Assembly: GCA_965276595.1 (NCBI GenBank) | Contig: CBDIBA010000002.1 | Coordinates: 2,802 to 66,801, forward strand | From: Beijerinckiaceae bacterium | Lineage (GTDB): Bacteria > Pseudomonadota > Alphaproteobacteria > Rhizobiales > Beijerinckiaceae | Length of the DNA: 64,000 bases | Direction of reading: 5' to 3' | In this document: positions 2,302-34,145 of the stretch, in pieces | How the letters are laid out: each line of letters begins with the position of its first letter | Position numbering within the stretch: position 1 is the stretch's first letter | Translations under genes and position numbers: made by a program | Notes under the pieces: model-generated | What the model was told of the DNA's origin: nothing | The model's input: the letters and a program-made list of their open reading frames with translations, nothing else | The model's database searches: none

Positions 2302-2362
2302 GACGCGATGACGACGACCTACGATCTCATCCTGAAAGGCGGCGCGCTCGTCAACCACGAGG
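2302..2362 (+). repeat. Copy 1 of a 61-bp perfect direct repeat (5' end of pyrC, truncated stub)
   Basis: gacgcgatgacgacgacctacgatctcatcctgaaaggcggcgcgctcgtcaaccacgagg is identical to 3046-3106. It reads MTTTYDLILKGGALVNHE and then diverges. Confidence 0.97.
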
Positions 2363-2513
2363 CGCGGTCAGCATGGTCGCCGTCATTCTCGGCCATGCGC
2401 TGGGCCGTGCGGCTTTTTCGAACGGGAGACGACTATCGATCGGAAAAGCGCAGGGCTCGCCTCGCAGTCGACCATTCGTGGGTACGGCTCATCGCCGCCG
2501 CGAATGTCCCAGT

Positions 2514-2741
2514 CTAGTCGCACCAAAATACGTTCCACCGCGGAACCGCGACGCGCGCAGCGTCGAAAGCATCGTTGACGAGATATTCCGGCAAATGGCC
2601 GTTGTCGTTCGGTTCGCGAATGATGAGCAGTTCGTTGGTTCGGCTTCGAAAGATGACCTGATGTTCCGTTGTTCCAATCTGCCGGAAGCCGATTGTTGCA
2701 AGATAGGTCACGATCTCGCCAAAATCGACACAGTAGATCAA
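2514..2741 (-). CDS. HicA-like toxin (putative)
   Basis: 75 aa. EIVTYLATIGFRQIGTTEHQVIF...HLPEYLVNDAF follows the HicA alpha-beta-beta-beta-alpha pattern with the conserved His. Confidence 0.5.
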   Translation of the reverse strand: MIYCVDFGEIVTYLATIGFRQIGTTEHQVIFRSRTNELLIIREPNDNGHLPEYLVNDAFDAARVAVPRWNVFWCD

Positions 2742-2743
2742 CG

Positions 2744-2959
2744 CTACGCAGCCGCGTCTTCGTATACCAGGTCGATTGCCTTCAACCGGCCGATGCTGTG
2801 ACCAGCGTCCGCGCGGCGAATGAAATCAAGCACGGCGACTGCGGCGCGCTCGGCTTCCTCTTCGGTCTTTCCGGTCACGTGAAAGCCGATGATGTCAGGC
2901 GAGGTCACGACGTGATACTCGCCGACTTTTTTGTGCTCGAGGCGAATGCGGCGATCCAT
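2744..2959 (-). CDS. Short HicB-like antitoxin (N-terminal domain only)
   Basis: YHVVTSPDIIGFHVTGKTEEEAERAAVAVL resembles the HicB N-terminal motif. Alternative start at 2977. Confidence 0.6.
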   Translation of the reverse strand: MDRRIRLEHKKVGEYHVVTSPDIIGFHVTGKTEEEAERAAVAVLDFIRRADAGHSIGRLKAIDLVYEDAAA

Positions 2960-3045
2960 TGACGTCTTTCGTTGCATTACCGAAATAAACTTGGCGACGA
3001 ACGGACGATATGTGGTCTGATCGCCCTAATAAATAGGAAATGTCT

Positions 3046-3106
3046 GACGCGATGACGACGACCTACGATCTCATCCTGAAAGGCGGCGCGCTCGTCAACC
3101 ACGAGG
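3046..3106 (+). repeat. Copy 2 of the 61-bp perfect direct repeat (start of intact pyrC)
   Basis: Identical to 2302-2362. Confidence 0.97.
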
Positions 3107-4377
3107 GAACGGGCCAGCGCGACATCGGCGTCAAGGACGGCAAGATCGCCGCGATCGGCGATCTGGCGCGCGCCTCGGCCGGGGCGATCGTCGGCTGTTC
3201 GGGCCTGCACGTTCTGCCGGGCGTGATCGACAGCCAGGTGCATTTCCGCGAGCCCGGGATGGAGCACAAGGAAGACCTCGAGACGGGTTCGCGCGCCGCC
3301 GTCCTCGGCGGCGTCACGACAGTGTTCGAAATGCCCAACACCAATCCCCTCACGACGAGCGAGGAGGCCCTGGCGGACAAGGTGGCGCGCGGCCGTCATC
3401 GCATGCATTGCGACTTCGCCTTCTGGGTCGGCGGCACGCACGAGAATGCGAACGACATCCCCGACCTGGAGCGCCTGCCCGGCGCGGCGGGGATCAAGGT
3501 GTTCATGGGGTCGTCGACCGGGTCGCTGCTGGTCGAAGACGATCCCGGCGTCGCCGCGATCTTGGCCAAGACGCGCCGTCGCGCCGCCTTTCACGCCGAA
3601 GACGAATACCGGCTCGAAGCGCGCAAGGGCCTGCGCATCCCCGGCGATCCGCGCTCGCACCCGGTCTGGCGCGACGAGATGACGGCGCTGCAATGCACGC
3701 AGCGCCTCGCGCGCATCGCCCGCGCGCACCGCGCGACGATCCACGTGCTGCATGTCTCGACCGCGGACGAGATCGACTTCCTGCGCGATCACAAGGACGT
3801 GGCGAGCGTCGAGGTGACGCCGCACCACCTCACGCTCGACGCGCGTCTCTACGAGACTCTCGGAACGAAGCTTCAGATGAACCCGCCGGTGCGCGACAAG
3901 CGCCACCAGGACCGCCTCTGGCAGGGCGTCGGGCAGGGGATCGCCGACATCCTCGGCTCCGATCACGCGCCGCATACGCTGGAAGAGAAGGCCAAGGCCT
4001 ATCCGGCGAGCCCGTCGGGGATGCCGGGCGTGCAGACGCTCGTGCCGCTCATGCTCGACCATGTCGCCGCCGGGCGTCTCAGCCTCGAACGCTTCATCGA
4101 CATGTCGAGCGCCGGCCCTGCGCGGCTGTTCGGCGTCGCGGGCAAGGGCCGCGTCGCGGTCGGCTACGACGCGGATTTCACCATCGTCGATCTCAAGCGG
4201 CGCGAGACCATCCGCGACGCCTGGATCGCCTCGCGCTGCGGCTGGACGCCCTACGACGGAAAGACGGTCACGGGCTGGCCGGTGGGGACCATCGTGCGCG
4301 GCGCGCGCGTCATGTGGGAGGGCGAGATCGCGACGCCCTCGCGCGGCGAGCCCGCGCGGTTCTGGCAAGCGCTTTAG
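3052..4377 (+). CDS. pyrC: Dihydroorotase (amidohydrolase superfamily)
   Basis: PGVIDSQVHFREPG, EMPNTNP, HVLHVST, VEVTPHHL, MNPPVR, GSDHAPH. Alternative start at 3040. Confidence 0.9.
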   Translation: MTTTYDLILKGGALVNHEGTGQRDIGVKDGKIAAIGDLARASAGAIVGCSGLHVLPGVIDSQVHFREPGMEHKEDLETGSRAAVLGGVTTVFEMPNTNPLTTSEEALADKVARGRHRMHCDFAFWVGGTHENANDIPDLERLPGAAGIKVFMGSSTGSLLVEDDPGVAAILAKTRRRAAFHAEDEYRLEARKGLRIPGDPRSHPVWRDEMTALQCTQRLARIARAHRATIHVLHVSTADEIDFLRDHKDVASVEVTPHHLTLDARLYETLGTKLQMNPPVRDKRHQDRLWQGVGQGIADILGSDHAPHTLEEKAKAYPASPSGMPGVQTLVPLMLDHVAAGRLSLERFIDMSSAGPARLFGVAGKGRVAVGYDADFTIVDLKRRETIRDAWIASRCGWTPYDGKTVTGWPVGTIVRGARVMWEGEIATPSRGEPARFWQAL

Positions 4378-4380
4378 GCG
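4313..4380 (+). repeat. pyrC 3' end, duplicated in degenerate form at 9407-9458
   Basis: The 21-bp core ggagggcgagatcgcgacgcc (4317-4337) is identical to 9410-9430, and the downstream cgcgcggttctggcaagcgctttaggcg resembles tgcgcggctccggcaggcgctctaggcg. Confidence 0.85.
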
Positions 4381-4389
4381 AAGCAACGT

Positions 4390-4458
4390 CGCGCCGCCCC
4401 TCACCCTAAGCCTGTCCCCGCAAGCGGGGCGAGGGGACGCATCGAGCGCGGCATCGGC
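4390..4458. repeat. REP-like hairpin family A (cccctcaccct...tccccgcaagcggggcgaggggac)
   Basis: Palindromic and homologous to 35948-36010 and 17325-17363. Confidence 0.85.
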
Positions 4459-4466
4459 CATTGTCG

Positions 4467-4545
4467 CGGTTGCGAGCGAAGCGAACGAGACTCGCTTCGA
4501 TGGGCTGGATTCGTCGTTGCGCTCCTCGCAAGGACGACGCTGGTT
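4467..4545. repeat. REP-like family B (CGTC-tagged type, degenerate)
   Basis: ttgcgagcgaagcgaa...cgctcctcgcaaggacgacgctggtt. The right end matches 17581-17604. Confidence 0.7.
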
Positions 4546-4614
4546 GGGAGCGCCCACGCGCGAGCCGGCTGTGTCCATGATGGCCGATCGCTGCGACGCC
4601 GCGATTAATAGGCG

Positions 4615-5058
4615 CTATCGATTGATTTCGGGCTCGACGAGGCGGGCGAGATTTCGCAGCGACTCCTGCCAGCCTAGATAGCACGCTTCCACCGGAATGG
4701 CGTCGGGAATGCCTTCCTGCACGATGGTCGCCTCGGCGCCGCAGAAGACCTGCTTCAGCGCCACGCTCACCTGCATTTCGCCCGGCAAATTGGGATCGTC
4801 GAACGTGTTCGTGTAGCGCAGGCGCTCGCCGGGCGCGAGCTCCAGATATGTCCCGCCGAAAGAATGGCTCGCGCCCGTCGTGAAGTTGCGGAACGACATC
4901 TTGAAGGCGCCGCCGACTTTCGCGTCGAGGCGATGCACCGTGCAAGCAAAGCCGTTGGGCGGCAGCCATTTCGCCAGCGCGTCCGCCTCGATGAAGGCGC
5001 GATAGACCTTGTCGGGCTTCGTCGTCAGGACACGGTGCAATCGAACGGTGTTGGGCAC
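4615..5058 (-). CDS. SRPBCC/AHSA1-like domain protein
   Basis: RLHRVLTTKPDKVYRAF...KWLPPNGF...ACYLGWQESLRNLARLVE. Confidence 0.9.
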   Translation of the reverse strand: MPNTVRLHRVLTTKPDKVYRAFIEADALAKWLPPNGFACTVHRLDAKVGGAFKMSFRNFTTGASHSFGGTYLELAPGERLRYTNTFDDPNLPGEMQVSVALKQVFCGAEATIVQEGIPDAIPVEACYLGWQESLRNLARLVEPEINR

Positions 5059-5287
5059 GGCTGTTTCTCCCGAGCAGGCGCTTCGACGAGGCGACGGGTC
5101 GTGACCTTACATCGTCCGACCCGGTCCGTTAACCGAGGCGTCCGGCGTGGGTCCGATCGTCAAGGAGGGAATCGAACATCAGGATCGGCCGATACGCCGC
5201 GTTGCCAGACCCTTCGGGCCTCTTTAACCCCAGCCTCGACGGCAATGTGAGGCGCGCCATCGATTGGATTAGAGCGAACCAGCAGTC

Positions 5288-6046
5288 TCAGGTTCCCCCG
5301 GACGCAGTCCGCCAGTGCAGAAAATACGCTTCGATCTGGATGAACACGAAGTTCATGAAATAACCGAGCACGCCGAGCGTGAAAATGCCGGCGAACATCT
5401 CGGGCACGCGAAAGATGCGCTGCATGTCCAGGATGAAGTAGCCGACGCCGCTGTTGCCGCTGATCATTTCAGCGATAATCGACACGATGAGAGCAATACC
5501 CAGGCTGATCCGCATTCCGGTCAGAACGCTTGGCAATGCGGCCGGTAGGACGATCTGGCGGAGCGCCCTGCCGCCGGTCACGTTAAATGTCCGGCCGGTG
5601 TCGATCAGGATGGGATCGATCCCCCTGACGCCACCGTAGGTGTTCAGCAGGGTCGGAAACACGCACGCGATGAAGATGACAAAAATTTTCATCTCGTTTC
5701 CGATGCCGAGCAGCAAGATCGCCACTGGGATGTATGCCGAACTCGGAATTGGCCGGATGATCTCCGTTATCGGTTCTAGAAGCCGGTAGGCGAAGGGAAC
5801 CGTTCCCATCAAAAGACCCAAAGGCACGGCCACGAGGGTCGCAAGCAGGAAACCGGAGAAGAGTCGCCACAAGGTGGGGCCCAACTGCCTCGGGAGCTCG
5901 CCGTCGGCGATCGTCTCAGCCCACGACGCCAGAATGGTGCTCACGCGGGGAATGGAGACGGTATCGACAAGACCTGTCGCAGAGGCAAGCTCCCAAAGGG
6001 CGAGAAGCGCCGCGATCAGCGCAAAGCCGGGTAGACGAGCCCTCAC
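5288..6046 (-). CDS. ABC transporter permease (SsuC/TauC/NitT family)
   Basis: Multi-TM protein with EIIRPIPSSAYIP and ALPSVLTGMRISLG. GTG at 6046 with GGAGG RBS. Confidence 0.9.
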   Translation of the reverse strand: MRARLPGFALIAALLALWELASATGLVDTVSIPRVSTILASWAETIADGELPRQLGPTLWRLFSGFLLATLVAVPLGLLMGTVPFAYRLLEPITEIIRPIPSSAYIPVAILLLGIGNEMKIFVIFIACVFPTLLNTYGGVRGIDPILIDTGRTFNVTGGRALRQIVLPAALPSVLTGMRISLGIALIVSIIAEMISGNSGVGYFILDMQRIFRVPEMFAGIFTLGVLGYFMNFVFIQIEAYFLHWRTASGGT

Positions 6047-6159
6047 GCTATCGCCTCCAAGATCTCGATATCTCCAGCGTTTCAGAGCTTTCGGCGCTCC
6101 TTGCATTCAAGCTCTCATCTGTCAGTATCGTATTACTCGATGTAACGTCCAAAGGCATG

Positions 6160-6963
6160 ATGAGCGACGTTCCTGTTATTGAACTGGCCAATATCACCAA
6201 GAGCTATGGCGGCGGCGGCCGCAGTGTCTCGGTGTTCAGAGACTTCTCTTGCAAGATCTTCGCCGGCAGCTTCGTCTCCATCGTAGGGCCGTCCGGCTGT
6301 GGTAAATCAACGCTGCTCAAGCTTATCGCGGGCCTGGAGTCTACGTCGGGCGGATCCCTGTTTTTCAACGGGCGCAAAATTTCGGCGCCGCCGAAGGGCG
6401 TGATCTACGTTTTCCAACAATATACGAAGTCGATCTTTCCATGGCGGACGGTGGTTCAGAACATCGCCTTCGGCGTAAGCAACCAGCAGTCGATTGGCGG
6501 CTCGGTCCTGCGACAGAAGTGCAGCGAATATGCCAAGTTGGTGGGGCTCGAGGGATACGAAGACTACTATCCTTCGCAATTGTCGGGAGGGATGCAGCAG
6601 CGGGTCGCCATCGCGCGCGCCCTGATTTGCGAACCGCAGGTTCTTTTGATGGACGAGCCTTTCAGTGCAGTCGACGCGATGACCCGGGCGCTGCTCCAGG
6701 AGCTGCTTCTGAAGATATGGCAAACGATCCCGGTCACGATTCTTTTTGTGACCCACGACGTCGATGAGGCGGTGTTTCTGTCTGACCGTATTTTGTCGCT
6801 CGGCAGATCCCCCGCATCGCTTCGCGAAGACGTATCTGTGGATCTCCCCTACCCGCGAGACCAGATCGAAACCCGCGGCCTCGACGAGTTTCGCGCAATC
6901 CGTCAAAAGCTGTTCGCAAGTATCTTCCTTCAAGAAAAGGCGATCGCTGCGGAGCAGCACTGA
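6160..6963 (+). CDS. ABC transporter ATP-binding protein (SsuB/TauB family)
   Basis: Walker A GPSGCGKST, LSGGMQQR, LLMDEPF, VTHDVDEA. Confidence 0.93.
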   Translation: MSDVPVIELANITKSYGGGGRSVSVFRDFSCKIFAGSFVSIVGPSGCGKSTLLKLIAGLESTSGGSLFFNGRKISAPPKGVIYVFQQYTKSIFPWRTVVQNIAFGVSNQQSIGGSVLRQKCSEYAKLVGLEGYEDYYPSQLSGGMQQRVAIARALICEPQVLLMDEPFSAVDAMTRALLQELLLKIWQTIPVTILFVTHDVDEAVFLSDRILSLGRSPASLREDVSVDLPYPRDQIETRGLDEFRAIRQKLFASIFLQEKAIAAEQH

Positions 6964-7147
6964 CATGCCGCCGGCAGACTTAAGGCCGGAGTCCGAAATC
7001 AGAACCGACATCTCAGAGGCCGCAGGCCCGCAAGGAAACCCCTCGCAGCCTCCGCCCAGGACCTCCGACGCTTGCCCGAGAAGCAATCGTAAAATCGACG
7101 ATGATCGGCGCGCGTCGTGCGCTCGTTGCGAGCATGCCCAGCCTGCT

Positions 7148-8218
7148 TTATTGAACGATGCTCGTTCTCGCTCTGACCTGGGCTTCGGCCGCCGAATTGG
7201 ACAAGCCGCGTTCGCGGCCAAGCAACGGAAGGACATCCTCGGCGAACATGTCGAGCTGTTCCAGCATCGGGGAGAACTTCAGCATCAAGAGCTCGATCCC
7301 GATGTCCTCTAATCTGCGAATCCGTTCGGCGATGACCTCGGGGGCGCCGATTAGTCCGACGCCGATCCCACTGACCGCGATAGCGGGAATTCGGCCGCCC
7401 TTGCCGTAAGCCGCAAGTTCGTCTGCTCGAAGCATCGCCTCTTCGTTGGTCGTCGCGCAGACGACGTGGGCGTTGAGGGCGCAGCGGACGTTGCGGCCGT
7501 GAGCCGAGCTTCGCTGGCGCATGTCCCGAACTTCGCGCGCAATTGCAGACCAGTGTTGTTCGTGCGCCTTGTGATCCGCGCCAGCCATGATGAACCAAGT
7601 ATCGCAATGCTTCGCGATGGTATCCTTGCCCGCCTCAGTCCTGCCGGCGGCGTAGATGGGAGGGCAAGGCGATTGTTGCGGCTTGAAGGGCACCTCTCCC
7701 AGCACAACCTTGAAGAAGTCTCCGCCGAACGAGAAGTTCTCTTCGGTCCAAAGTCCCTTAAGGACTTGGATGAATTCGTCGATTCGTCGGTATCGTCCTT
7801 GGTCGTCGTCGAGCCAGCCGCCGTTGCCGAAGATATTGAACTCTTCCTTGTGCCAACCGCCGACGACATTCACCGCGCACCTTCCTCCGCTGATGCGATC
7901 AAGGGTCGCCCCCATTTTTGCGGCGATCTGCGGGCAAATGATGCCGGGATGGACCGCCGGCATGATCTTGATGCGAGTGGTCTTCGCGGCAAGGGCCGAA
8001 GACAGCATCCACGATTCAAGATCCGGCCCAAGAAAACGTTCGGCGACGAGCGTTATTGAGAACCCGTACGCTTCGGCCTTTTGCAACACGTCTATGGCGA
8101 ACTGCATCGCCAGATCGGGTTTACCGGGCCCGCGGAGCGCGCTGCTCGCTATTGCCGCGGCCATCGTGGGCTCGTCACGAATCGTATGCGGAAGAGGCGT
8201 CCAGATACCGAAGTCCAT
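7148..8218 (-). CDS. LLM-class flavin-dependent monooxygenase (SsuD-like)
   Basis: AKMGATLDRISGGRCAVNVVGGW, F.FGGDFFKV, PPIYAAG. Confidence 0.88.
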   Translation of the reverse strand: MDFGIWTPLPHTIRDEPTMAAAIASSALRGPGKPDLAMQFAIDVLQKAEAYGFSITLVAERFLGPDLESWMLSSALAAKTTRIKIMPAVHPGIICPQIAAKMGATLDRISGGRCAVNVVGGWHKEEFNIFGNGGWLDDDQGRYRRIDEFIQVLKGLWTEENFSFGGDFFKVVLGEVPFKPQQSPCPPIYAAGRTEAGKDTIAKHCDTWFIMAGADHKAHEQHWSAIAREVRDMRQRSSAHGRNVRCALNAHVVCATTNEEAMLRADELAAYGKGGRIPAIAVSGIGVGLIGAPEVIAERIRRLEDIGIELLMLKFSPMLEQLDMFAEDVLPLLGRERGLSNSAAEAQVRARTSIVQ

Positions 8219-8260
8219 CCATCGCCCCTTTTAAACAGCGTTGTTCACCCCCTTAAGTCA

Positions 8261-9229
8261 TCATCTCTCGCCCTTCCCGACCACGTATGGCGTAATCTCT
8301 TTTGAGAAATACTCGGCGGCCTGATGCGATTTTTTAAGCTCGCCTGAACTCCTGAGCAACTCGATCAACTCCTGCCACCGGTCGGGCCTAACGCGGTAGT
8401 CCCAGCCGATCAGCGGCATCATTTTGACAAGTCCCGCGTCGAGCCCCGTGAAGGCCACAACCTTCTCATGCGCCCTTTCCGGATCAGCGTTCAGGAATTC
8501 GTCGGCTTCCTTTAGCGACTTGCCGAACTTGGCCACGGCATCCCCGTTTTTCTCCAAGAAGCTGCGTTTGACCCACCACGAACCCAGAGGCTGCTGCGGG
8601 ATCGATTCGACATAGTTCCACGAGATGACCCGACCGATCCCCCTTGCGGTGAGCACCGTCGTGAAGGGGTCGACCGTCACCACGGCATCGACCTGCTTTG
8701 TCCTGAGGGCGTCCACGTGGGCTACAAAGGGCAACTCGACGAACTGAACCTTGGATAAGTCCACTCCGGCTTTCTGCATCACCGCTTGGGCGTCAAGGGT
8801 TGCTTGATTGCGAAACTGAAGGATGGCGACCTTCTTGCCTTCGAGATCGCGGAGCGTTTTGATGTCGGAATCCACGCGAACCTGAACCGAGCCGGAATCC
8901 GGCGGTGTCGCCTTCGCAATCTCGTTTTGGAAGACAAGCGCCAGGTCGAACCCGCGCTCTACAGCGATCAGCGCCCCGCCCGGAATGACCTGCACAATGT
9001 CGACGCTGCCTGCCTGCAGCGCCCCGATCATATCGGTACCGCCTTGCATTTCGACGAAGCTCACATCCAGTCCGTTCTTCTTGAAAATTCCCTCGTTTAA
9101 GGCGACCCACGCGTTGGTGAGAGCCGCGATCTTGAGGGTCCCGGCGCGCAACGTTTCTGCAGAGACCGTTGAGGCGCAAATTCCGAACAGGGAAGTTAGA
9201 ATGACGAGCTTCTGAAGCCACGCTTTCAT
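8261..9229 (-). CDS. ABC substrate-binding protein (SsuA/THI5/NitT family)
   Basis: Signal peptide, then GIFKKNGLDV, DLEGKKVAI, ALRTKQVDA. Confidence 0.88.
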   Translation of the reverse strand: MKAWLQKLVILTSLFGICASTVSAETLRAGTLKIAALTNAWVALNEGIFKKNGLDVSFVEMQGGTDMIGALQAGSVDIVQVIPGGALIAVERGFDLALVFQNEIAKATPPDSGSVQVRVDSDIKTLRDLEGKKVAILQFRNQATLDAQAVMQKAGVDLSKVQFVELPFVAHVDALRTKQVDAVVTVDPFTTVLTARGIGRVISWNYVESIPQQPLGSWWVKRSFLEKNGDAVAKFGKSLKEADEFLNADPERAHEKVVAFTGLDAGLVKMMPLIGWDYRVRPDRWQELIELLRSSGELKKSHQAAEYFSKEITPYVVGKGER

Positions 9230-9406
9230 TCTTCGTCTCCTTGCGCTCTCGCAAACTTCCCCAACACTTCAAGTCGTCAGCCTACGGACGGAAATATTAC
9301 TGTCAATCCTCTGTCCGGACTTTTGTCGATAGCTCCTGAAAATGTCCGATCTGGTAGCAAAGGCCATGTGGATCGCGCATCGCCTGATCGATGACAGCGC
9401 CTGTGG

Positions 9407-9458
9407 TGTGGAGGGCGAGATCGCGACGCCTGCGCGGCTCCGGCAGGCGCTCTAGGCG
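9407..9458 (+). repeat. Degenerate copy of the pyrC 3' end including its TAG stop
   Basis: Aligns to 4313-4380 with an internal deletion of about 15 bp and several substitutions. Confidence 0.8.
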
Positions 9459-9460
9459 CT

Positions 9461-10468
9461 TCAGGCGTCGCGCCGATAGGCCTGATACCAATCCACGAAG
9501 GCGCGCACGCCCTCTTCGATCGAGGTGTGCGGGCGATAGCCGGTGATGCGTTCGAGCGCCGCGCCGTCGGCGACGGTGCGCGGCGCGTCGCCCGGCTGCA
9601 TCGGCATGAGGTTGCGGATCGCCTTGCGCCCCAGCGCGCGCTCGATCGCATCGACGAAGTCGGTCAGCTTCACCGGCTCGCCGCGGCCGATGTTGACGAC
9701 GCGGTAGGGCGCGACGGGCGAAAGCGTGCGATCCGCGCCGGCCTCGCCCGAACCGGGCGGCGGCGGCCGCTCCATCAGAAGCTCGATCGCGTGCACGAGA
9801 TCCTCGACATAGGTGAAGTCGCGCCACATCTCGCCGTGATTGTAGAGATCGATCGGGCGTCCGTTCTCGATCGCCTCGACGAATTTGTTGAGCGCCATGT
9901 CCGGCCGCCCCCACGGGCCGTAGACGGTGAAGAAGCGGAAGCAGGTCGTGGGGATCGACCACAGATGCGCATTGGAATGCGCCATCGCCTCGCCGGCCTT
10001 CTTCGTCGCTGCATAAAGCGTCAGCGGGTAATCGGCGCGATGATCTTCTGCGAACGGAAGGATCGGGTCCGCGCCGTAGACTGAGCTCGTCGAGGCGAAC
10101 AGGAAATGCCCGACCCGCCGCGCGCGCGCCATCTCCATGACGTTGAACGCGCCGACGAGATTGGAATCGACGTAGGCGCGCGGGTTCTCGAGGCTGTAGC
10201 GAACGCCGGCCTGCGCGGCGAGATGCACGATGACGTCGGGTTGCGACGCCTCGACTGCGGCGCTCAGCGCCGGCGTATCTTCCAGCATGGCGAGATGCGC
10301 GTGAAACGCGTTGGAGCGCTGCAGGATCGCGAGACGCGCCTGCTTGAGGCGGACATCGTAATAGGGCGTCATGCCGTCGAATCCGTCGACCTCGTGGCCA
10401 TGCGCCAGCAATCGCGACGCGAGATGGAAGCCGATGAAGCCGGCCGCGCCGGTGATGAAGACGCGCAT
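9461..10468 (-). CDS. NAD-dependent epimerase (UDP-glucuronate 4-epimerase family)
   Basis: [54 protein letters not shown]. Confidence 0.92.
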
Positions 10469-11359: not shown

Positions 11360-12331
11360 CTAGGCCGGACGCCGCATGATCGCCGCATAAACCTTCATCG
11401 CGTCGAGATGCTCCGCGACATCGTGCGCGCGCACGATGGCCGCCCCCGCCATCGCCCCGATGACCGCGGCGGCGAGCGAGCCGGCGAGCCGCTCGCGGGC
11501 GACGGCTCGGCCGCTCGCCTCGCCGATCGAGCGCTTGCGCGAGGCGCCGAGCAGAATCGGAAACCCGAGCTCGCGCAGGCGCGGCAACTCGCGCATCACG
11601 ATGAGACTCTGCGCGTTCGTCTTGCCGAAGCCGACGCCCGGGTCGACGATGATCTTGTCGGGCGCCACGCCGGCGGCGAGCGCGATATCGATCGAGCGGC
11701 GCAGGAAGTCGAGCACGTCGGCGACGATGTCGATCGAGGAATCGACCTCTTCGCGGTTGTGCATGACGACGATGGGAACGCCGTGCTCGGCGACGACGCG
11801 CGCCATGTCCGGGTCCTGCTGCAGACCCCACACGTCGTTGGCGACGCTGGCGCCGGCTTCGAGCGCGGCGGCGCAGACGCTCGCCTTGCGCGTGTCGATC
11901 GAGATCGGCAGATCGGTTCGCGCCGCGAGCCCGGCGACGACGGGGATCGCGCGGGCGCGCTCGTCGTCCGCATCGACCGGGCTGTGCCCGGGCCGCGTCG
12001 ATTCCCCGCCGATGTCGAGGATGTCCGCGCCGTCGTCCGCGAGGCGCAGGCCATGCGCGAGCGCGGCGGCGGAATCGAGAAAGTCGCCGCCGTCGGAGAA
12101 GGAATCGGGCGTCACGTTGACGATGCCCATGACGAGCGGGCGAGGCCCGAGCGCGAGCGGCCGGCGCGCCTTCTGGGCGCCGCGCTCGGCGAGAGGCGCG
12201 TCCGCGCCGGAGGCCGGCGGCGTGATGTCGCGCGCCCGCGACAGCGGGTCGGCCGCGCGGCCGGTGTCGTCGAGCGCCTTTTTCGCGCCGCGCACGCCGC
12301 GCCCCAAAGCGTAGAGATACTTGTCGAACAT
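11360..12331 (-). CDS. folP: Dihydropteroate synthase (start uncertain; N-terminal extension)
   Basis: MGIVNVTPDSFSDGG, DIGGESTRPG, VDPGVGFGK, GASRKR, RAHDV. Confidence 0.93.
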   Translation of the reverse strand: MFDKYLYALGRGVRGAKKALDDTGRAADPLSRARDITPPASGADAPLAERGAQKARRPLALGPRPLVMGIVNVTPDSFSDGGDFLDSAAALAHGLRLADDGADILDIGGESTRPGHSPVDADDERARAIPVVAGLAARTDLPISIDTRKASVCAAALEAGASVANDVWGLQQDPDMARVVAEHGVPIVVMHNREEVDSSIDIVADVLDFLRRSIDIALAAGVAPDKIIVDPGVGFGKTNAQSLIVMRELPRLRELGFPILLGASRKRSIGEASGRAVARERLAGSLAAAVIGAMAGAAIVRAHDVAEHLDAMKVYAAIMRRPA

Positions 12332-12369
12332 CGCCGCCCCGCAAGCGCCGTCGGCGCAGGCTCAATCGC

Positions 12370-13482
12370 TCATCGCTCGAACGGCCACGCCGGCGCCGCG
12401 CCGACCTGGCCGCGATGGCGCAGGAACGCGTCGGCCAGCACGATCGCCATCATCGCCTCGCCCACCGGAACCGCGCGGATCCCGACGCAGGGGTCGTGAC
12501 GGCCCTTGGTGCGGATTTCGGTCTCGGCGCCGAACCGGTCGATCGAGCGTCGTGGCGTCAGGATCGAGGAGGTCGGCTTGACCGCGAAACGCGCCACGAT
12601 CGGCTGCCCCGTCGAGACGCCGCCGAGCACGCCGCCGGCGTGGTTGGACAGGAACAGCGGCCGGCCGTCGTTTCCCATGCGCATCTCGTCGGCGTTCTCC
12701 TCGCCGCTGAGCGAGGCCGCCGCCACGCCGTCGCCGATCTCGACGGCTTTCACGGCGTTGATCGACATCAGCGCGCCCGCGAGCTCGGCGTCGAGCTTGC
12801 CGTAGAGCGGCGCGCCCCAGCCGGGCGGAACGCCGTCGGCGGCCAATTCGATCACCGCGCCGCAGGACGAGCCCGCCTTGCGCACGCCGTCGAGGTAGTC
12901 TTCCCAGCGCGCGGCCGCCGTGGCGTCCGGACAGAAGAACGGGTTCTCGTCGACCGCCTTCCAGTCCCAGTTCGCGCGGTCGATCGCGTGCGGGCCCATC
13001 TGCACCAGCGCGCCGCGGATCGTCACGCCGTCGACAATCTTGCGCGCCACGCCGCCGGCGGCGACGCGCATCGCGGTCTCGCGCGCCGAGGAGCGGCCGC
13101 CGCCCCGGTAGTCGCGCACGCCGTATTTGGCGTCGTAGGCGTAGTCGGCGTGGCCCGGCCGATAGGCGTCTTTGATCTCGCCGTAGTCCTTGGAGCGCTG
13201 ATCGACGTTCTCGATCATCAGGCCGATCGGCGTTCCGGTCGTCGCTTGCGCGCCGGCCTCGTCGCGCATCACGCCGGACAGGATCTTGACCTGGTCGGGC
13301 TCCTGCCGCTGCGTTGTGAAACGCGAGCGTCCCGGCCGGCGCTTGTCGAGGTAGACCTGCAGGTCGGCCTCGGTCAGCGGGAGGCGGGGCGGGCACCCGT
13401 CGATGACGCAGCCGATCGCCGGCCCATGGCTTTCGCCCCAGGTCGTCACGCGGAAGAGATGGCCAAACGTGTTGTGCGACAT
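12370..13482 (-). CDS. aroC: Chorismate synthase
   Basis: MSHNTFG...TWGESHG, RPGHAD, RSSARET, GRHDPCV. Confidence 0.97.
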
Positions 13483-13748
13483 CGGCGGGCTCGGGCGCCC
13501 GATTACTAGGGGCGGCGTTCCGCGCGGTCAAATGACGCGACCTGCGCATTGTCGCGTGTCGCAGCGGACACGACGCGAACGTCGTCGATGCGCCGTCGAG
13601 GGGAGCCGGCCGGCGTTTCGTTCCCTCGATCGTCGACAAACCGTGATAAAGGTCGTCGCCGGTTAAATTGCGGGGCGTTGTCTTCCCGCGAGCCTGGCTT
13701 GGGGGCCCGTGAGCGGGCGAGATCACGAACGACACGCGTGGTGTTTCG

Positions 13749-16115: not shown

Positions 16116-16131
16116 AGGCTCCTCCCAAGCT

Positions 16132-17172: not shown

Positions 17173-17324
17173 CCATAATCCTCCTCGCCCGAAATCGGCT
17201 TGCGACATCGGTAGGGCGACAGTCTAATCGTCCGCCGTCGCGCTGCAAATCGCATGAGGGGCTTTGCGGGGCGCCGAAACCAGATCGTCATTAACGCAGA
17301 TGGCGATGGCGCAATGTTGTCCCG

Positions 17325-17459
17325 CCCCTCACCCTCACCCTCCCCGCAGGCGGGGCGAGGGGATCTCCACGTCGCCAACACGCTGGCGTTTGGACGAGCG
17401 TCTGCCGCAGCGCTCCCTCTCCCCGTCGCGACGGGGAGAGGGCCGGGGTGAGGGGCGAA
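17325..17459. repeat. Inverted pair of family A REP-like hairpins
   Basis: cccctcaccct..tccccgcaggcggggcgagggga ... ctccctctccccgtcgcgacggggagagggccggggtgaggggc. The right hairpin is near-identical to 36041-36093. Confidence 0.88.
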
Positions 17460-17507
17460 CGATCATCGAGTTCGGCGTCGGCCATCGTCGGCCTTGTGAC
17501 TCCGCGT

Positions 17508-17650
17508 CGTCATTGCGAGGAGCGCAGCGCAACGTCAACCCAGCAGCGATGCGATCCCTAGGTTGCTTCGTCGCCTTCGGCTCCTCGCGATGACGACGCT
17601 GGTTCGGCCCGTCGTAACGACGGTGTGGCTTCGCTCCGCTCGCGATGACG
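17508..17650. repeat. Family B CGTC-tagged palindromic element plus an extra right end
   Basis: cgtcattgcgaggagcg...gctcctcgcgatgacg (17508-17595) and gcttcgctccgctcgcgatgacg (17628-17650). Confidence 0.85.
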
Positions 17651-17697
17651 TTGCGCTCCGCTCGAAACGCCAATGTCGCCCATCGCCCGCAATGAAC

Positions 17698-28774: not shown

Positions 28775-29854
28775 ATGCAGACCTGGATCAAAAACGCCTG
28801 GCAGGTTGTCGCCTATCCTCACGAGATCGGCCGGACGCTGCTGGCGCGTCGCATTCTCGACGAACCGGTCGTGTTCTTCCGAACCGAGGCCGGCGCGATC
28901 GTCGCCATGGAGGATCGCTGCCCGCATCGGCTGGTTCGGCTGTCGCTGGGGCAGTTGAGCGGCGACCGGCTGCGCTGCGGCTACCATGGCCTTGAATTCG
29001 GGCCCGACGGCGTCTGCCGCCACGTCCCCGGACAGGATCGCATTCCCGCGAACGCGCGGGCCCGCGTCTATCCCGTCGTCGAGCGCCACAACGTGGTCTG
29101 GATGTGGACGGGCGACGCCGCCCTCGCCGATCCCGCTCTCGTGCCGGACATCCATTGGCTCGATCATCCCGGCTGGACGCCGAGCGCGGGCTATCATCAC
29201 ATGGCGTGCGACTTCCGTCTCGTGACGGACAACCTGCTCGATCTGTCGCACGAGACCTATGTCCATAAGCACACGATCGGCAACGCGGCCGTGGCGGACT
29301 CGCCGGTGCATGTGGAGCTCGATCGCGGACGCGTCATCCGGGCCCACCGCGAGATGCCCAACATCGATCCGCCGCCGTTTTTCTCGCGTCTGCTGGGCTA
29401 CGACGGACGCATCGATCGCTGGCAGACCGCGATCTACCTGCCGCCGGGGATTCACGTCACGGAGGCCGGATTTCACCCGGTGGGAGCCAATCGAAGCGGC
29501 GCGTTCGTGCATCGCGTGCTGCATCTCCTCACGCCGGAGACCGAACACAGCGCCCATTACTTCTGGGCGACGTGCCGCAACTATCGCCGCGACGACGAGG
29601 CGCTGACCCGCTACACGATCGAAGCGACGATGTTCACCTTCAACGAAGACAAGGCCATGCTGGAGCCGCAGCAGAAAGCGCTGCTCGAACTCGGAAGTCC
29701 GGACATCCCGCGCGTCACGATTTCCGTGGACGCCGCGCCCATCCAGGCGCGCAGGCTGCTCGCCAGGGCGGTCGAGGCCGAACTGGCGGACAGCCGTCGC
29801 GTTCAGCCTTTCGTCCCCGTCATCGAGGAAAGCTCGGAGCCGATCGCGGCGTGA
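28775..29854 (+). CDS. Rieske monooxygenase, VanA-like O-demethylase family
   Basis: KNAWQV, DRCPHR, CGYHGL, DNLLDLSHETYVH, F.EDK.MLE.QQ. Confidence 0.9.
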   Translation: MQTWIKNAWQVVAYPHEIGRTLLARRILDEPVVFFRTEAGAIVAMEDRCPHRLVRLSLGQLSGDRLRCGYHGLEFGPDGVCRHVPGQDRIPANARARVYPVVERHNVVWMWTGDAALADPALVPDIHWLDHPGWTPSAGYHHMACDFRLVTDNLLDLSHETYVHKHTIGNAAVADSPVHVELDRGRVIRAHREMPNIDPPPFFSRLLGYDGRIDRWQTAIYLPPGIHVTEAGFHPVGANRSGAFVHRVLHLLTPETEHSAHYFWATCRNYRRDDEALTRYTIEATMFTFNEDKAMLEPQQKALLELGSPDIPRVTISVDAAPIQARRLLARAVEAELADSRRVQPFVPVIEESSEPIAA

Positions 29855-29869
29855 CCGGCTCGCCCGGTC

Positions 29870-30910
29870 CTAACGCGCCGCCGGCGTGACGAGACGCTTC
29901 GCCCGCGCGACGACGTCTTTGGGCGTGGCGTAGACGCGCGCGATCAACGCCTGCGCGTCGGCGCCGCTCGTCGGCGAGATTTCCGCCATCATGGTCTTGC
30001 CGTCTTGCAGAAACGCCGGATCTTTCATCGTTTCGTCGAACCCGCGCCGCAACAGCTCGACCGCCCCCTTCGTCGTGTCGGGCGGCGCCGCGAAGGGCCG
30101 GCTCAGCGCCGTGCCCGCCACGAACATCGAGAGAAGCTGCTTGTCGGCGTCCGATTTCAAAAGATCGAAGATCAGCGGCGCGTCGCCCGCCCTCGGGCTC
30201 TTCTCCAAGCCGAGCTGCAGCAGGATGTTGATCTTGTGGTCGCGCAGCCAATCGGGCTTGGCGGCTTCGAGCGAGGACAGCGTGATCCCGCAGCGGCCGT
30301 TCACCTCGCCGTTCTCCATCGCCAGGAACGTCTCCTTCGAGCCGAGATAGCCGGTGATGATCTTGAATTTCGTGCCGATCGTGTCGTTGAGGATCAGCGG
30401 GAACGTGTCGGTCTCCGAGCCCGCGCCGGTGCCGGCGAGCTGCATGACCTTGGTTTTCGCGTCGTCGATCGTCTTGAACGGGCTGTCGGCCCACGCGATG
30501 CAAAGGCTCACGTCGCGGCTGATCGCGCCGATCCAGTTGAACGCGCTCATGTCGTAGCCGGGATTGCGGGCTCCGATCAGCGGCTCGATCAGCGGGCCGC
30601 CGGGAAACACCGCCAGCGCCGTCCCGTCCTTGGGCGCGCCTTTCGCGAGGAAATTGGCGGCGCGGATGCCGCCGGCGCCCGGCATGTCCTCCACGTTGAC
30701 GGCCGGCGAGCCGGGGATGCGACGGCCGAGATGGCGCCCGAGCAGCCGCGCGTAGAGGTCGACGCCGCCGCCCGCCGTCCCCGCGACATAGATCGTGATC
30801 GGCTTGCTGATCGTTTCTTGCGCGCTCGTGGCGGGCGGCGCCGCCATCGCCGCGCCCATCGCTACCCCGATGGCGCGGCCGGCCCAGCGCCCGCGAACCG
30901 TGCATCCCAT
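29870..30910 (-). CDS. Bug/TctC-type periplasmic substrate-binding protein (start uncertain)
   Basis: GTAGGGVDLYARLLGRHL, EDMPGAGGIRAANFL, LAMENGEVNG. Confidence 0.85.
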   Translation of the reverse strand: MGCTVRGRWAGRAIGVAMGAAMAAPPATSAQETISKPITIYVAGTAGGGVDLYARLLGRHLGRRIPGSPAVNVEDMPGAGGIRAANFLAKGAPKDGTALAVFPGGPLIEPLIGARNPGYDMSAFNWIGAISRDVSLCIAWADSPFKTIDDAKTKVMQLAGTGAGSETDTFPLILNDTIGTKFKIITGYLGSKETFLAMENGEVNGRCGITLSSLEAAKPDWLRDHKINILLQLGLEKSPRAGDAPLIFDLLKSDADKQLLSMFVAGTALSRPFAAPPDTTKGAVELLRRGFDETMKDPAFLQDGKTMMAEISPTSGADAQALIARVYATPKDVVARAKRLVTPAAR

Positions 30911-30985
30911 TGCGTTCCGCCCCGATGATCGTTGCGACGATCGTATCCTTACGGGCCGCGACGCGGCAAGCGCGCGCATCGACGC

Positions 30986-31801
30986 TCAATACCCGTGTTC
31001 GGCGGCCGGAAAGGCGCCGGTCTTCACGGCGTCCACATAGGCTTTCACCGCGCCCTCAATGGTGCCCGTCTCCGGAATGAAGTCTTTTACGAAACGCGGC
31101 CGCTTGCCGGGAAAGACGCCGATCATGTCGTGCAGAACGAGCACCTGCCCGTCGCAATCGGGCCCGGCGCCGATGCCGATCGTCGCCGTCCTCGTCATCG
31201 ACCGCGTCACGGCGGCCGCGACATCGGACGGCGTCATCTCGATGACCATCAGCGCCGCGCCCGCGTCTTCCAGCGCGCGCGCGTCAGCCTTCATCTGCGC
31301 CGCCGCCTCTTCGCCCTTGCCCTGCACGCGATAGCCGCCGAGTTGATGCACGGATTGCGGCGTCAGACCGATGTGCGCGCACACCGGCGCGCCGCGCTCG
31401 ACAAGAAAGCGCACGGTCTCGGCCATGTAGGCGCCGCCCTCGAGCTTCACCATCTGCGCGCCCGTGCGCATCAGCAGCGCGGCGTTGCGCATCGCCTGCT
31501 CGCGGCTCTCCTGATACGAGCCGAACGGCATGTCCGCGATGAGGAAGGCGCGTCTCATGCCTCGGAACACGCATTCCGTGTGATAGATCATCTGCTCCAG
31601 CGTGACGGCGAGCGTCGTCGGCAAGCCTTGAATGACGTTGCCGAGCGAATCGCCGACGAGCACCACGTCAACGCCGCAGCGGTCGAGCATCGCGGCGAAG
31701 CTGGCGTCGTAGCTCGTCAGCATGGCGATCTTCTCGCCGCGCGCGCGCATCTGCGCGAGGTCGCCGAGCTTCAAGGGCTTCAGGTCGTCGAGGTAGGCCA
31801 T
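30986..31801 (-). CDS. panB: 3-methyl-2-oxobutanoate hydroxymethyltransferase
   Basis: LTSYD, LVGDSLG, ADMPF, VKLEGG, HIGLTPQ, DGQVLV.HD. Confidence 0.96.
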
Positions 31802-31810
31802 GGCGTCGCC

Positions 31811-32668
31811 TTAGTCGCTCACCGCGACGTTGTCGATCAGCCGCGTGGCGCCGATGCGCGCCGCGCCGAGCAGGCGCCAGTCGCGAAGGGTCTGTCCGGC
31901 GATCGGCGCGCCGAGCGTTTGCGCATCGCGCAGCTCGACATAGTCGATCTCGAAGCCGGCGGCGGCGATCGCCGCGCTCGCCTCGTGCAAGGTCGGCTCG
32001 AGCGCCGCGCCCTGACGCAGACGCTCCGCCGCCGCGCGCAAGGCGCGGTAGAGGGCGGGGGCGCGCTCGCGCTGCGCGGGGTCGAGATAGGCGTTGCGCG
32101 AGGAGAGGGCGAGCCCGCTGGCTTCGCGCAGCGTCGGCGCGCCGACGATCTCGACGGGGATGTCGAGATCGCGAACCATCCGCCGGATCACCGCGAGCTG
32201 CTGAAAGTCCTTCTCGCCGAAGATCGCGGCATCGGGCGAGGCCTGCAGCAGCAGCTTCGCGACGACCGTCGCGACGCCTTGGAAATGCGTCGGCCGAAAC
32301 CGATCCTCCAGACCCGCGGCCGCCGGTCCTTGCGGCGCGATCGAGGTCGCGAAACCAGGCGGGTACATCTCGGCGGCGTCCGGATGGAAGGCGGCGTCGG
32401 CGCCCGCCGCCGCCAGTTTCGCGAGGTCGGCTTCGAAGGCGCGCGGATAGCGAGCGAAGTCTTCGTCCGGTCCAAATTGGGCCGGGTTGACGAAGATCGA
32501 AACGACGACGCGCGCCGCGCGCCGTCTCGCCAGCGCGACAAGCGAGACATGCCCGTCGTGCAGCGCGCCCATCGTCGGGACGAGCGCGATCGTCTCGCCC
32601 GCGGCGCGCCAGGCGCGGACGCGCGCGCGCAGGCGGCCGATCGTGCGGATGATCTCCGGCTGCGTCAT
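31811..32668 (-). CDS. panC: Pantoate--beta-alanine ligase
   Basis: VPTMGALHDGH, SIFVNPAQF, RPTHF.GV, FGEKDFQQ, GLALSSRN, RLIDN. Confidence 0.96.
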   Translation of the reverse strand: MTQPEIIRTIGRLRARVRAWRAAGETIALVPTMGALHDGHVSLVALARRRAARVVVSIFVNPAQFGPDEDFARYPRAFEADLAKLAAAGADAAFHPDAAEMYPPGFATSIAPQGPAAAGLEDRFRPTHFQGVATVVAKLLLQASPDAAIFGEKDFQQLAVIRRMVRDLDIPVEIVGAPTLREASGLALSSRNAYLDPAQRERAPALYRALRAAAERLRQGAALEPTLHEASAAIAAAGFEIDYVELRDAQTLGAPIAGQTLRDWRLLGAARIGATRLIDNVAVSD

Positions 32669-32707
32669 GGGCGCCTTTTCCGCTTAAATCGATCCGCTCG
32701 CAAGCCG
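32606..32707 (-). repeat. panC 5' end plus upstream sequence; copy attached to the intact gene
   Basis: 32628-32707 matches 34066-34145 at 77/80. The match extends to gcgccaggc (32606-32614 / 34053-34061) across a 9-bp indel. Confidence 0.95.
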
Positions 32708-34052
32708 CCATGCCTCTTGCGCCATGGCGAGGCCCCGAGCGAAAGACCCACGCGTCAGCCTGGAGCGGACGGCAGCGCGCTGCAGTTGCTCGTCGCCGGC
32801 GCGCCCTCGAAGCGCTCCCGCACCCAGGCGACCGCGTCGTCGTTCCCTTGCTCCACAATGGATTCGTGATCGGCAGTCGGGAATAGCCGATAAAGCAACT
32901 CGTTTCCGTTCGCGCACAGCTTGCGGGCGACGGCGTCGGTGGTGGACGGCGGAACCGTGACGTCCGCGCCGCCCTGCATGATGAAGGTGGGCGCAGCGAT
33001 ACGCAGACCGCCAGGATCGTTCGCAGCGGCCAGTTTGAGGACCGCCGAGAGATCGGCGCCGGGCAGGAACTGATCCTTCGGGACCGCCGTGGCCCAATAG
33101 CCCTTGGACAGCGTTGGCGACACGCACTCCTGCCGGGTCTGCGCCAGGTGGGCGAGAGCCTGCGGGCTTAGGATGCGGCCGAGGTCGATACCGGGATGGT
33201 TGGATGCGACCGACTGCAGGAAGTACATCGCGTAGATCAGCGCACCCGAGGGTTGCGAGGCTGTTGTCAGCCCCTGGATACGGCCTCCCATGTCGGACGC
33301 CGGCGCGAAGGCGACGTTCCCGAGAAGCGTCAGATCCGGCGCATAGGAGGGTCCAAACCGAGCCGTGAACAGGTCCGCCTGGCCGCCTTCCGAGTGACCC
33401 ATGACGACGTAGCGCGCGCCGACGCCCGGATCGATCTGGCGCGCCGCGCGCATGATATCGAGCGCCCCCCGGGCCTCCGCTTCGCCTTGCAGGAACGGAT
33501 GGATGTCGCCGCCCGTCACGCCGAGGCCCTGGAAGTCGCTGAAGACCACCGCGTAGCCCTGCCGCACGAATTGATCGAGTCTCGATCGGCTCGGTCCGAG
33601 ATAGTAGTGTTCCGTGCTGTCCGGCGTGTCGAGGGACGGGGCGCATGCGGGCGACAGGCCGGTGGTCCCATGCGTCCAGGTGATCAGCGGCCATCCGCCC
33701 GCCGGCGGCGCGCCGCGCGGGACGGAGAGCGTTCCGGAAACGGCGATGGGCGCGCCATCGAGCCTTCGCGATTGATACAGGACGAGCAGGTTGCGCGCGG
33801 CGCTCGGCAGGGAGACGTCCGCGGCCGCGTCCCTCGCCCAGATCGCTGCGCCGTGCTCTGCATTGGGAAGCGGAGATGGCGGGACATAGAACGCCATCCC
33901 CGCCGGCCCTTCGGAAACCTGAGCCGCTTCCGCGCTTGAATCCGTTACGAGAGCGCACATCGCGAGAATGAGCGGGACCGTGCGAAAGACGTTCAATCTC
34001 ATGGCGCTTTTCCGTTGCAAGGTCTGGAAGGAGCCCGGCCTCGTCAGCGATT
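32708..34052. mobile_element. Single-gene islet (lipase) between panC 5' repeats; no integrase
   Basis: Bounded by the duplicated panC 5' end. Confidence 0.65.
32755..34002 (-). CDS. Secreted lipase/alpha-beta hydrolase (LIP secretory lipase-like)
   Basis: Signal peptide, WTHGTTG, GHSEGG nucleophile elbow, QGGAD, DH catalytic region. Confidence 0.88.
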   Translation of the reverse strand: MRLNVFRTVPLILAMCALVTDSSAEAAQVSEGPAGMAFYVPPSPLPNAEHGAAIWARDAAADVSLPSAARNLLVLYQSRRLDGAPIAVSGTLSVPRGAPPAGGWPLITWTHGTTGLSPACAPSLDTPDSTEHYYLGPSRSRLDQFVRQGYAVVFSDFQGLGVTGGDIHPFLQGEAEARGALDIMRAARQIDPGVGARYVVMGHSEGGQADLFTARFGPSYAPDLTLLGNVAFAPASDMGGRIQGLTTASQPSGALIYAMYFLQSVASNHPGIDLGRILSPQALAHLAQTRQECVSPTLSKGYWATAVPKDQFLPGADLSAVLKLAAANDPGGLRIAAPTFIMQGGADVTVPPSTTDAVARKLCANGNELLYRLFPTADHESIVEQGNDDAVAWVRERFEGAPATSNCSALPSAPG

Positions 34053-34145
34053 GCGCCAGGCCCGTCGCAGGCGGCCGATCGTGCGGATGATCTCCGGCTG
34101 CGTCATGCGCGCCTTGTCCGCTTAAATCGATCCGTTCGCAAGCCG
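34053..34145 (-). repeat. Truncated panC 5' stub (MTQPEIIRTIGRLRRAWRNR*)
   Basis: Homologous to 32606-32707. Confidence 0.95.

Follow-up and report, generated by a model that had tools for sequence, protein, structure and literature searches.

A 64,000-nt stretch of a Beijerinckiaceae bacterium genome (GenBank assembly GCA_965276595.1, contig CBDIBA010000002.1), referred to here as the window, contains blocks of cargo DNA that are bracketed by duplicated ends of housekeeping genes. The organism is an uncultured alphaproteobacterium from soil or freshwater (Hyphomicrobiales or Beijerinckiaceae-like), and the contig measures 71 kb. Our data indicate that two of these blocks, at the 5' end of pyrC (event A) and at the 5' end of panC (event C), are certain insertions and that a third, at the 3' end of pyrC (event B), is a probable one. 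The cargo in each event lies between an intact gene and a short stub of the same gene end, the gene order that preceded the insertion is preserved in relatives, recombinase genes are absent, and where the two copies differ it is the stub that has decayed. We infer from these structures that two, probably three, independent insertion-duplications took place without a recombinase encoded by the element, through either homology-facilitated illegitimate recombination (HFIR) or the single crossover of a circular fragment, from donor DNA in which the cargo already lay beside the gene. We hold this explanation tentatively, at somewhat less than even probability. Under it the scars would represent, in nature, a process known from laboratory work, two of them certain and one probable, in an unusual cluster.

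In event A, positions 2302-2362 and 3046-3106 are identical at 61 of 61 nt in direct orientation, and each copy consists of 6 nt of upstream DNA and the first 55 nt of pyrC (-6 to +55). The second copy (+ strand) opens the intact pyrC (3052-4377, + strand), which encodes a dihydroorotase (NCBIfam NF006559, 788 bits) with 85% amino acid identity to that of L001. This is the best PyrC match in a genome-collection scan that returned different species only, and it belongs to freshwater "Rhizobiales" metagenome-assembled genomes (MAGs); the PyrC proteins of Methylocapsa and Methylocella share 74-77% identity. The first copy (2302-2362, + strand) is a stub, and its open reading frame (ORF; 2308-2517, + strand, in frame of ORF 2242-2517) fuses 18 native pyrC codons in frame to cargo sequence for a total of 69 codons. 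Between the copies lies cargo A (2363-3045), which comprises 683 bp at 56.5% GC and has an AT-rich promoter region next to pyrC; the window as a whole is 67.8% GC. We examined ygfZ-pyrC synteny at 80 species loci, of which roughly 70 keep ygfZ adjacent to pyrC. The two genes are divergent and separated by approximately 80-240 nt in every one of these ygfZ-adjacent relatives versus 839 nt in the window, and the pyrC 5' insertion is absent from all of these roughly 70 relatives. The ancestral spacer is still recognizable at 2213-2301, directly after the ygfZ start at 2212, by the motif ctaag(t)aagccgc, which also precedes pyrC in L001-L004 and L007, the closest relatives. The stub copy adjoins this spacer and its conserved motif, and the intact pyrC is preceded by AT-rich cargo DNA.

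This layout suggests a changed expression context for pyrC. The ancestral spacer presumably holds the native pyrC promoter, which would now drive the stub alone. Just within cargo A, a terminator-like hairpin with a T-run on the pyrC strand (2396-2411) might end transcripts from the native promoter soon past the stub, a weak indication given that two such sites were found versus 1.0 expected. As judged from the arrangement of the DNA, pyrC is separated from its native promoter and ribosome-binding site, and its expression would have to come from cargo DNA.

Cargo A encodes a candidate toxin-antitoxin operon of 71- and 75-amino-acid products on the - strand, with non-coding remainders of approximately 150 and 85 nt. 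The 75-amino-acid product (2514-2741, - strand), a HicA-like toxin candidate, has no sequence-family match; its AlphaFold2 model (predicted local distance difference test score of 64) has an alpha-beta-beta-beta-alpha fold, and the top Foldseek matches of this model are the HicA structures 1whz, 6g26_E and 5yrz_B, with template-modelling scores of 0.63-0.79 and E-values of 0.01-0.1. The 71-amino-acid product (2744-2959, - strand), a HicB-like antitoxin candidate, matches Pfam HicB_lk_antitox at an E-value of 0.029, below the cut-off, and the PDB HicB structure 6g1c at an E-value of 0.22, and its homolog P0242 carries the JGI label "HicB family". The pair may resemble HicAB type II modules as a two-gene operon in which one product has a predicted HicA fold and the other is weakly HicB-like; it differs from them in that the antitoxin gene comes first and sequence similarity falls under family thresholds. 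Homologs of the pair form only three clusters among 5.8 billion proteins; the pair is present again in a few metagenome contigs, and the operon pairing is kept in L173-L176. The DNA shared by L176 and L173 is limited to approximately 490 nt, which start about 40 nt ahead of the first gene and end at the stop codon of the second, and the contexts differ. No long flanking repeats were found around the homologous cassettes in L170-L177, where the sole candidate is a 17-nt pair (E-value of 0.036), and a plasmid search returned no match for cargo A. Separately, one sequencing run from a different sample and study (X5) contains two 151-nt contigs that match 2480-2630 and 2768-2918 with 0-1 differences, and no words from the pyrC flanks or from 9.9 kb of host core. 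These pieces, possibly a single read pair, weakly hint that cassette A exists elsewhere.

Event C has the same 5' layout at panC. The repeat spans panC -46 to +41 (87 nt) with 3 mismatches, each of which precedes the ATG; beyond this span 9 nt are deleted from the stub and another 9 nt are identical, which brings the duplication to approximately 109 nt (panC -46 to +63; 32606-32714 versus 34053-34152). The lower identity first read for this repeat, and likewise alignments of 84-87%, came from extension into non-homologous GC-rich flanks. The repeats of A and C are both beyond chance and were both recovered in independent per-run assemblies. The functional copy (32606-32714, - strand) begins the intact panC (pantoate-beta-alanine ligase by Pfam; 31811-32668, - strand), which is followed by panB (30986-31801), and the stub copy (34053-34152, - strand) contains an ORF of 20 codons (34106-34044). 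The functional copy agrees with L167 at each of the three variable positions and with L164 at one of them; the stub carries the derived state as well as the deletion. Cargo C (32715-34052, 1.34 kb), which is spanned by Logan contigs covering 32640-34095 and 32640-34107, is a single gene with non-coding remainders of approximately 40 and 45 nt. This gene encodes a LIP-family secretory lipase (32755-34002, - strand; Pfam LIP, 6e-21). It is oriented like panC and has only some 40 nt of DNA before its own ATG, which makes transcription from the native panC promoter, by way of the 20-codon stub, probable. Lipase homologs with 73-83% amino acid identity occur in unrelated contexts, with DNA similarity inside the coding sequence (in L082 up to the stop codon), and none of these closest homologs lies next to panC as a donor arrangement would.

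The surroundings of panC place event C within an otherwise conserved gene order. The nearest panC relatives (70-72% amino acid identity; the closest overall at 72%, and at most 64% among the matches listed in the metagenome scan) share the order GMC oxidoreductase, GT2, MurJ, HAD, a 47-nt spacer, panC and panB. The window keeps this order, and its former 47-nt HAD-panC spacer holds two insertions: the lipase with its repeat, and an older insertion (34181-36146) composed of a Vgb_lyase-like beta-propeller gene (34221-35942, + strand) and a repetitive extragenic palindromic (REP)-like element (35926-36124). In relatives HAD is followed directly by panC. No flanking repeat was found around the 34181-36146 insertion.

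Event B lies at the opposite end of pyrC. Its functional copy (4317-4380, + strand) comprises the terminal 61 nt of pyrC, stop codon (4375-4377) included, and 3 further nt; its stub copy (9409-9458, + strand), which is statistically marginal, ends 5 nt from the stop codon of a convergent, intact NAD-dependent epimerase/dehydratase gene (Pfam; 9461-10468, - strand). The copies share an exact core of 21 nt (4317-4337 and 9410-9430), the longest exact direct match in the window after those of A (61 nt), C (42 nt) and one REP element (32 nt). After the core the stub has a 15-nt in-frame deletion and then 27 nt with 4-5 differences, with the TAG stops aligned. The functional copy has the ancestral length and a ttc codon as in L001, and the stub looks like a decaying copy. 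We consider event B credible because its copies coincide exactly with both edges of a block of 58-60% GC and with gene stops, namely the pyrC stop and the position 5 nt from the epimerase stop, and on this context we accept it as genuine with good confidence. Even the closest relative has different DNA downstream of pyrC.

Cargo B (4381-9408, 5.0 kb, 59% GC) is a predicted sulfonate-type transporter/monooxygenase islet. Its left edge is a REP-like palindromic element directly after the pyrC stop (4378-4560; 80-84% identity to 17301-17490 and 35926-36124), followed by Pfam-assigned genes for an SRPBCC/AHSA1 protein (4615-5058, - strand), an ATP-binding cassette (ABC) permease (5288-6106, - strand), an ABC ATPase (6157-6963, + strand), a luciferase-like monooxygenase (7148-8218, - strand) and an NMT1/SsuA-like binding protein (8261-9229, - strand). 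The GC content at third codon positions (GC3) of cargo B genes is 0.71-0.73 versus 0.85-0.92 in their neighbours. In the plasmid search the SRPBCC gene alone was matched, at 78%.

The junctions themselves are reproduced in the underlying sequence data. DNA nearly identical to the window is confined to four runs of one metagenome sample, at approximately 2-8x depth, the sole outside exception being the two 151-nt pieces of cargo A in X5; exact-protein look-ups with the pyrC and panC products matched no record. Both junctions of A and both of C were recovered in Logan per-run contigs from 3-4 runs of the one sample, and one X4 contig (2164-2560) starts in upstream DNA, crosses the repeat and enters cargo A. 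Unitigs of the 61-nt and 42-nt repeats are twice as deep as the sequence that flanks them, and cargo and flanks are of equal depth. Event B is spanned by single contigs within runs (7.0 kb and 8.8 kb) with 0 differences. No empty-site or circular forms were found in Logan contigs, which at k=31 could not show them for A or C.

We found no integrase, resolvase, recombinase or transposase among approximately 60 ORFs in a Pfam profile scan of the entire window, no tRNA or tmRNA in the window with ARAGORN, and no terminal inverted repeats at the cargo edges. Scans of viral contigs with the cores of the three repeats and both toxin-antitoxin proteins returned no match. The cargos are neat and complete units (a whole toxin-antitoxin operon, a lipase gene and a transporter cluster), with no partial genes at their edges. 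Because lipase and toxin-antitoxin homologs lie in unrelated contexts and DNA homology is confined to the genes, we conclude that the cargo genes travel as bare units and that the long repeats belong to insertion events of this genome and not to the cassettes. An earlier reading of this DNA from its sequence alone had described the shared 5' layout (upstream DNA, a stub of 18-20 codons, cargo, a second start and the full gene), the intact gene left by each insertion, the new DNA placed upstream of a biosynthetic gene and the lack of integrase, transposase, tRNA and terminal inverted repeats. All of these descriptions hold, the last of them across the full 64 kb by Pfam, ARAGORN and repeat comparison, and its view of the blocks as insertions agrees with the ygfZ-pyrC and HAD-panC spacers of relatives.

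How might such scars form? In the mechanism that we favour, the incoming DNA would be cargo with a short terminal segment of the host gene attached to it. Along one route a linear fragment would undergo a homologous crossover in pyrC or panC and an illegitimate join at its other end (HFIR); along the other, a circularised fragment would enter by a single Campbell-type crossover. Either route would yield, in order, the ancestral flank, a gene-end stub, the cargo, a second gene-end copy and the intact gene. The stub would afterwards be free to decay, which would make the events an age series: A is unchanged, C differs by 3 substitutions and one deletion, and B has changed further still. Only products that leave pyrC, panC and their neighbours intact would survive, and long repeats would be lost again through recombination between their two copies.

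Several observations are consistent with this mechanism. The polarity expected from Campbell or HFIR integration is constant across the events: the stub always borders the ancestral flank, and the intact copy runs on into the body of the conserved gene, which would act as the anchor. In B and C the stubs hold derived states and deletions and the functional copies match relatives, which fits copies that began identical, or nearly so, and of which the non-functional side then decayed. The sites behave as variable hotspots between core genes. We favour insertion-duplication because it needs no unknown enzyme, explains the constant polarity and fits hotspot-like sites. There is also laboratory precedent for it: in E. 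coli conjugation, single crossovers of recircularised DNA gave rise to duplications of 109-950 bp and were more numerous than classical HFIR (PMC3240628). The Campbell-type integration proposed in the sequence-only reading is retained as one of the two routes. HFIR is also the proposed origin of stacked orphan modules at type VI secretion system (T6SS) and Rhs loci, the former in V. cholerae (PMC5361080). The sequence-only reading further described the insertions as anchored on gene ends. The repeats do include gene ends; targeting is not needed to explain this, since a selection filter is simpler, insertions that break pyrC or panC being lost. The ancestral spacers are short (approximately 95, approximately 5 and 47 nt), so any tolerated duplication of 60-110 nt will necessarily take in the end of a gene, and survivorship probably accounts for the association. 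Insertion-duplication and HFIR are reported to have been studied by de Vries and Wackernagel in 2002, by Prudhomme and colleagues in 2002 and by Meier and Wackernagel in 2003.

A number of points weigh against this explanation. Collections that hold no conspecific genome yielded no donor allele, in which the cargo would adjoin the gene and no stub would be present, and a prior step is needed to place the cargo beside the gene in some donor. With homology on both flanks, replacement by an ordinary double crossover should prevail. The coding stubs are similar in length (55, approximately 60 and approximately 63 nt), and a random illegitimate join predicts otherwise unless selection or detection limits the range. 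Lastly, repeat B scores 44 bits in alignment, which is within the GC-rich noise of other gene ends; of the three blocks with duplicated gene ends that were first described, A and C stand beyond chance and reassemble per run, and B stands as probable only.

We also considered whether B and C each pair one native copy with one foreign copy, a surrogate gene end supplied from outside, a candidate prompted by in-frame indels and AT-to-GC differences. It was rejected because the functional copies are ancestral and the stubs derived relative to relatives, and because GC3 along pyrC and panC shows no donor tract.

The alternative that survives best, which we regard as unlikely yet worth weighing, is that the long duplications arose in situ, when foreign DNA was captured at a break with staggered ends of 60-110 nt or by replicative template switching, with no donor allele involved. 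In the template-switch form, synthesis would leave at +55 or +63, copy foreign DNA and re-enter at -6 or -46, the position at gene ends again coming from selection. Such an origin takes one step and makes a conspecific donor unnecessary; the repeats also look as if they were identical at first, with the stub alone decaying later. The repeat lengths are on a similar scale (61, approximately 64 and approximately 109 nt), the foreign composition of cargo A and cargo B (56-59% GC) is what direct capture predicts, and the pyrC 5' end is no shared hotspot, with 0 insertions in roughly 70 other species. Random capture would not be expected to deliver neat, complete units without partial genes at the edges, however, and the length of the repeats does vary. 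Moreover, we know of no bacterial process that makes target duplications of 60-110 bp around captured DNA; known transposases, casposases and Cas1-Cas2 give 2-37 bp.

Insertion by an integrase, now lost or encoded elsewhere, with gene ends regenerated as att sites, is improbable in our assessment. Islands of this kind are familiar: the dusA 5' end is restored on insertion, and e14 and phage 21 integrate at the icd 3' end. Direct repeats that bound the element and regenerate the gene end are the hallmark of such islands and are what we observe (61, approximately 64 and approximately 109 nt, with pyrC and panC intact). A toxin-antitoxin module would be the last part lost in decay, and the 21-nt core of B followed by a diverged segment resembles an att core joined to a surrogate gene end. 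Against this, the window holds no integrase gene or remnant, inside the elements or next to them, and the non-coding DNA of cargo A and of cargo C leaves no room for remnants. The differences in B and C are derived in the stub and not in the functional copy, which argues for decay and not for an end supplied by the element. Relatives do not use the pyrC 5' end as an insertion site: no related element occupies the ygfZ-pyrC spacer in roughly 70 species. The sequence-only reading had suggested cassettes moved by an integrase acting in trans, with an att core to be matched to these repeats. Compared by eye, the three repeats and six junctions share no common core or motif, nor attC- or dif-like inverted sites of the kind used by integrons, dif modules or cis-mobilizable elements, so three integrase specificities would be required; in addition, the repeat cores are absent from 2.9 million viral contigs. 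Neither this suggestion nor the idea of pyrC 5' as an integration site is borne out. Transposons and insertion sequences fit no better, since transposase and terminal inverted repeats are lacking and the duplications are 61-109 nt versus the short 2-14 bp of such elements.

A dedicated route of this lineage, which would insert small, promoter-poor cassettes at gene boundaries with target duplications of approximately 60-110 bp, also seems improbable to us. Its enzyme could be encoded elsewhere in the genome, or it could couple DNA uptake or delivery by gene transfer agents to end-joining. If true, the lineage would have a means of acquiring cassettes that differs from integrons, transposons and integrase islands. 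The last alternative, an assembly artefact in which strain variants, or an empty site and small circles, were misjoined in a low-coverage metagenome (about 2-8x per run, with a k=31 graph that alone cannot separate the integrated form of A or C from an empty site and a circle), is very hard to reconcile with A and C junctions present as contigs in 3-4 independent runs, the X4 contig across upstream DNA, repeat and cargo A, repeat unitigs at exactly twice the flank depth with cargo at flank depth, and single contigs of 7-9 kb across B with no differences.

We questioned how unusual this cluster is by comparing the relatives' loci with themselves (177 loci, 2.09 Mb) for direct repeats of 35-250 nt with at least 85% identity that lie 0.2-12 kb apart. 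This comparison returned 9 repeat pairs, nearly all of which are hairpins like those of REP elements or of miniature inverted-repeat transposable elements, or termini of tandem paralogs. Under the same criteria the window contains two pairs, to which B is added. Comparable cases number at most 1-2 in 2.09 Mb of relatives versus 2-3 in 32 kb here, an excess that is not a clean statistic, as this window was selected because of events A-C. This lineage may acquire such scars at a higher rate or retain them better. Of the 9 pairs only one is a possible gene-end case: in L009, a related MAG built from long reads, a 52-nt direct repeat with 87% identity (12082-12133 and 13505-13557) brackets a single gene (12256-13233, - strand) just downstream of pyrC; of the two copies, one falls within the 3' portion of the following gene, and the homology stops short of the gene end. 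This pair may be a further insertion-duplication.

Other features of the window touch on the inserted blocks or on the genes around them. The REP-like palindromic family occurs at 4378-4560, 17301-17663 and 35926-36124 and forms GGGGAGAGGG/CCCTCTCCCC hairpins. The elements at 4378 and at 35926-36124 start at or overlap a stop codon (of pyrC and of the Vgb_lyase-like gene, respectively), and two of the three elements mark an edge of inserted DNA, in cargo B and in the Vgb_lyase-like insertion. Adjoining the REP-like element at 17301-17663 is a gene (17698-21705) for a 1,335-amino-acid protein resembling a single-module nonribosomal peptide synthetase, with an AMP-binding domain, a carrier domain and hexapeptide-transferase repeats. 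A second toxin-antitoxin pair (50061-50740, 61% GC), between a MucR/Ros regulator gene and a DUF6456 gene, is composed of a PIN-domain toxin (50061-50489, - strand) and a Phd/YefM antitoxin (approximately 50486-50740, - strand); no direct repeat flanks this pair. Two paralogs of TctC-like solute receptors (16132-17208 and 29870-30979) share approximately 59% DNA identity over 0.8 kb, and each adjoins a Rieske oxygenase gene (14760-16184 and 28775-29854, respectively).

Most accessory genes lie in hotspots between core genes without mobile-element genes nearby, and their arrival is usually inferred rather than seen. The scars described here keep the junctions of cargo of 0.7-5 kb that entered beside essential genes, with a gene end as the only repeated sequence. 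The 5' cases also alter the expression context of essential genes: pyrC would be dependent on cargo DNA, and the lipase is apparently within the panC-panB transcription unit. Should the excess over relatives extend to the whole genome, this organism would offer a natural system for measuring gene acquisition that is independent of recombinases.

These structures can be set beside three known systems. DusA-type integrases are reported to insert in the 5' end of dusA (PMC4482086). Gene-end-regenerating islands of the dusA and icd types resemble the events described here in having direct repeats at a gene end, an intact gene, a stub and, in the 5' cases, new upstream DNA. They are defined by an integrase, however, and measure 10-100 kb; the blocks in the window have no integrase, measure 0.7-5 kb, lie at sites that are not reused in relatives and carry their derived changes in the stub. 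In the orphan modules of Rhs and T6SS loci (PMC5361080), a module is likewise added at a conserved anchor, the displaced end is kept as a remnant and no integrase is involved; in those loci the conserved 5' portion of a polymorphic toxin gene serves as anchor and the remnant is a functional immunity gene, whereas here the anchors are pyrC and panC and the 5' remnants are stubs of 18-20 codons. Laboratory insertion-duplication and HFIR share with these events entry via one short homology, a direct duplication around the insert and independence from an element's recombinase, and their duplications of 109-950 bp overlap the sizes seen here. The laboratory cases used designed homology, whereas those in the window are natural and fixed, involve only 61-109 nt of a housekeeping gene end, and number two to three within 32 kb.

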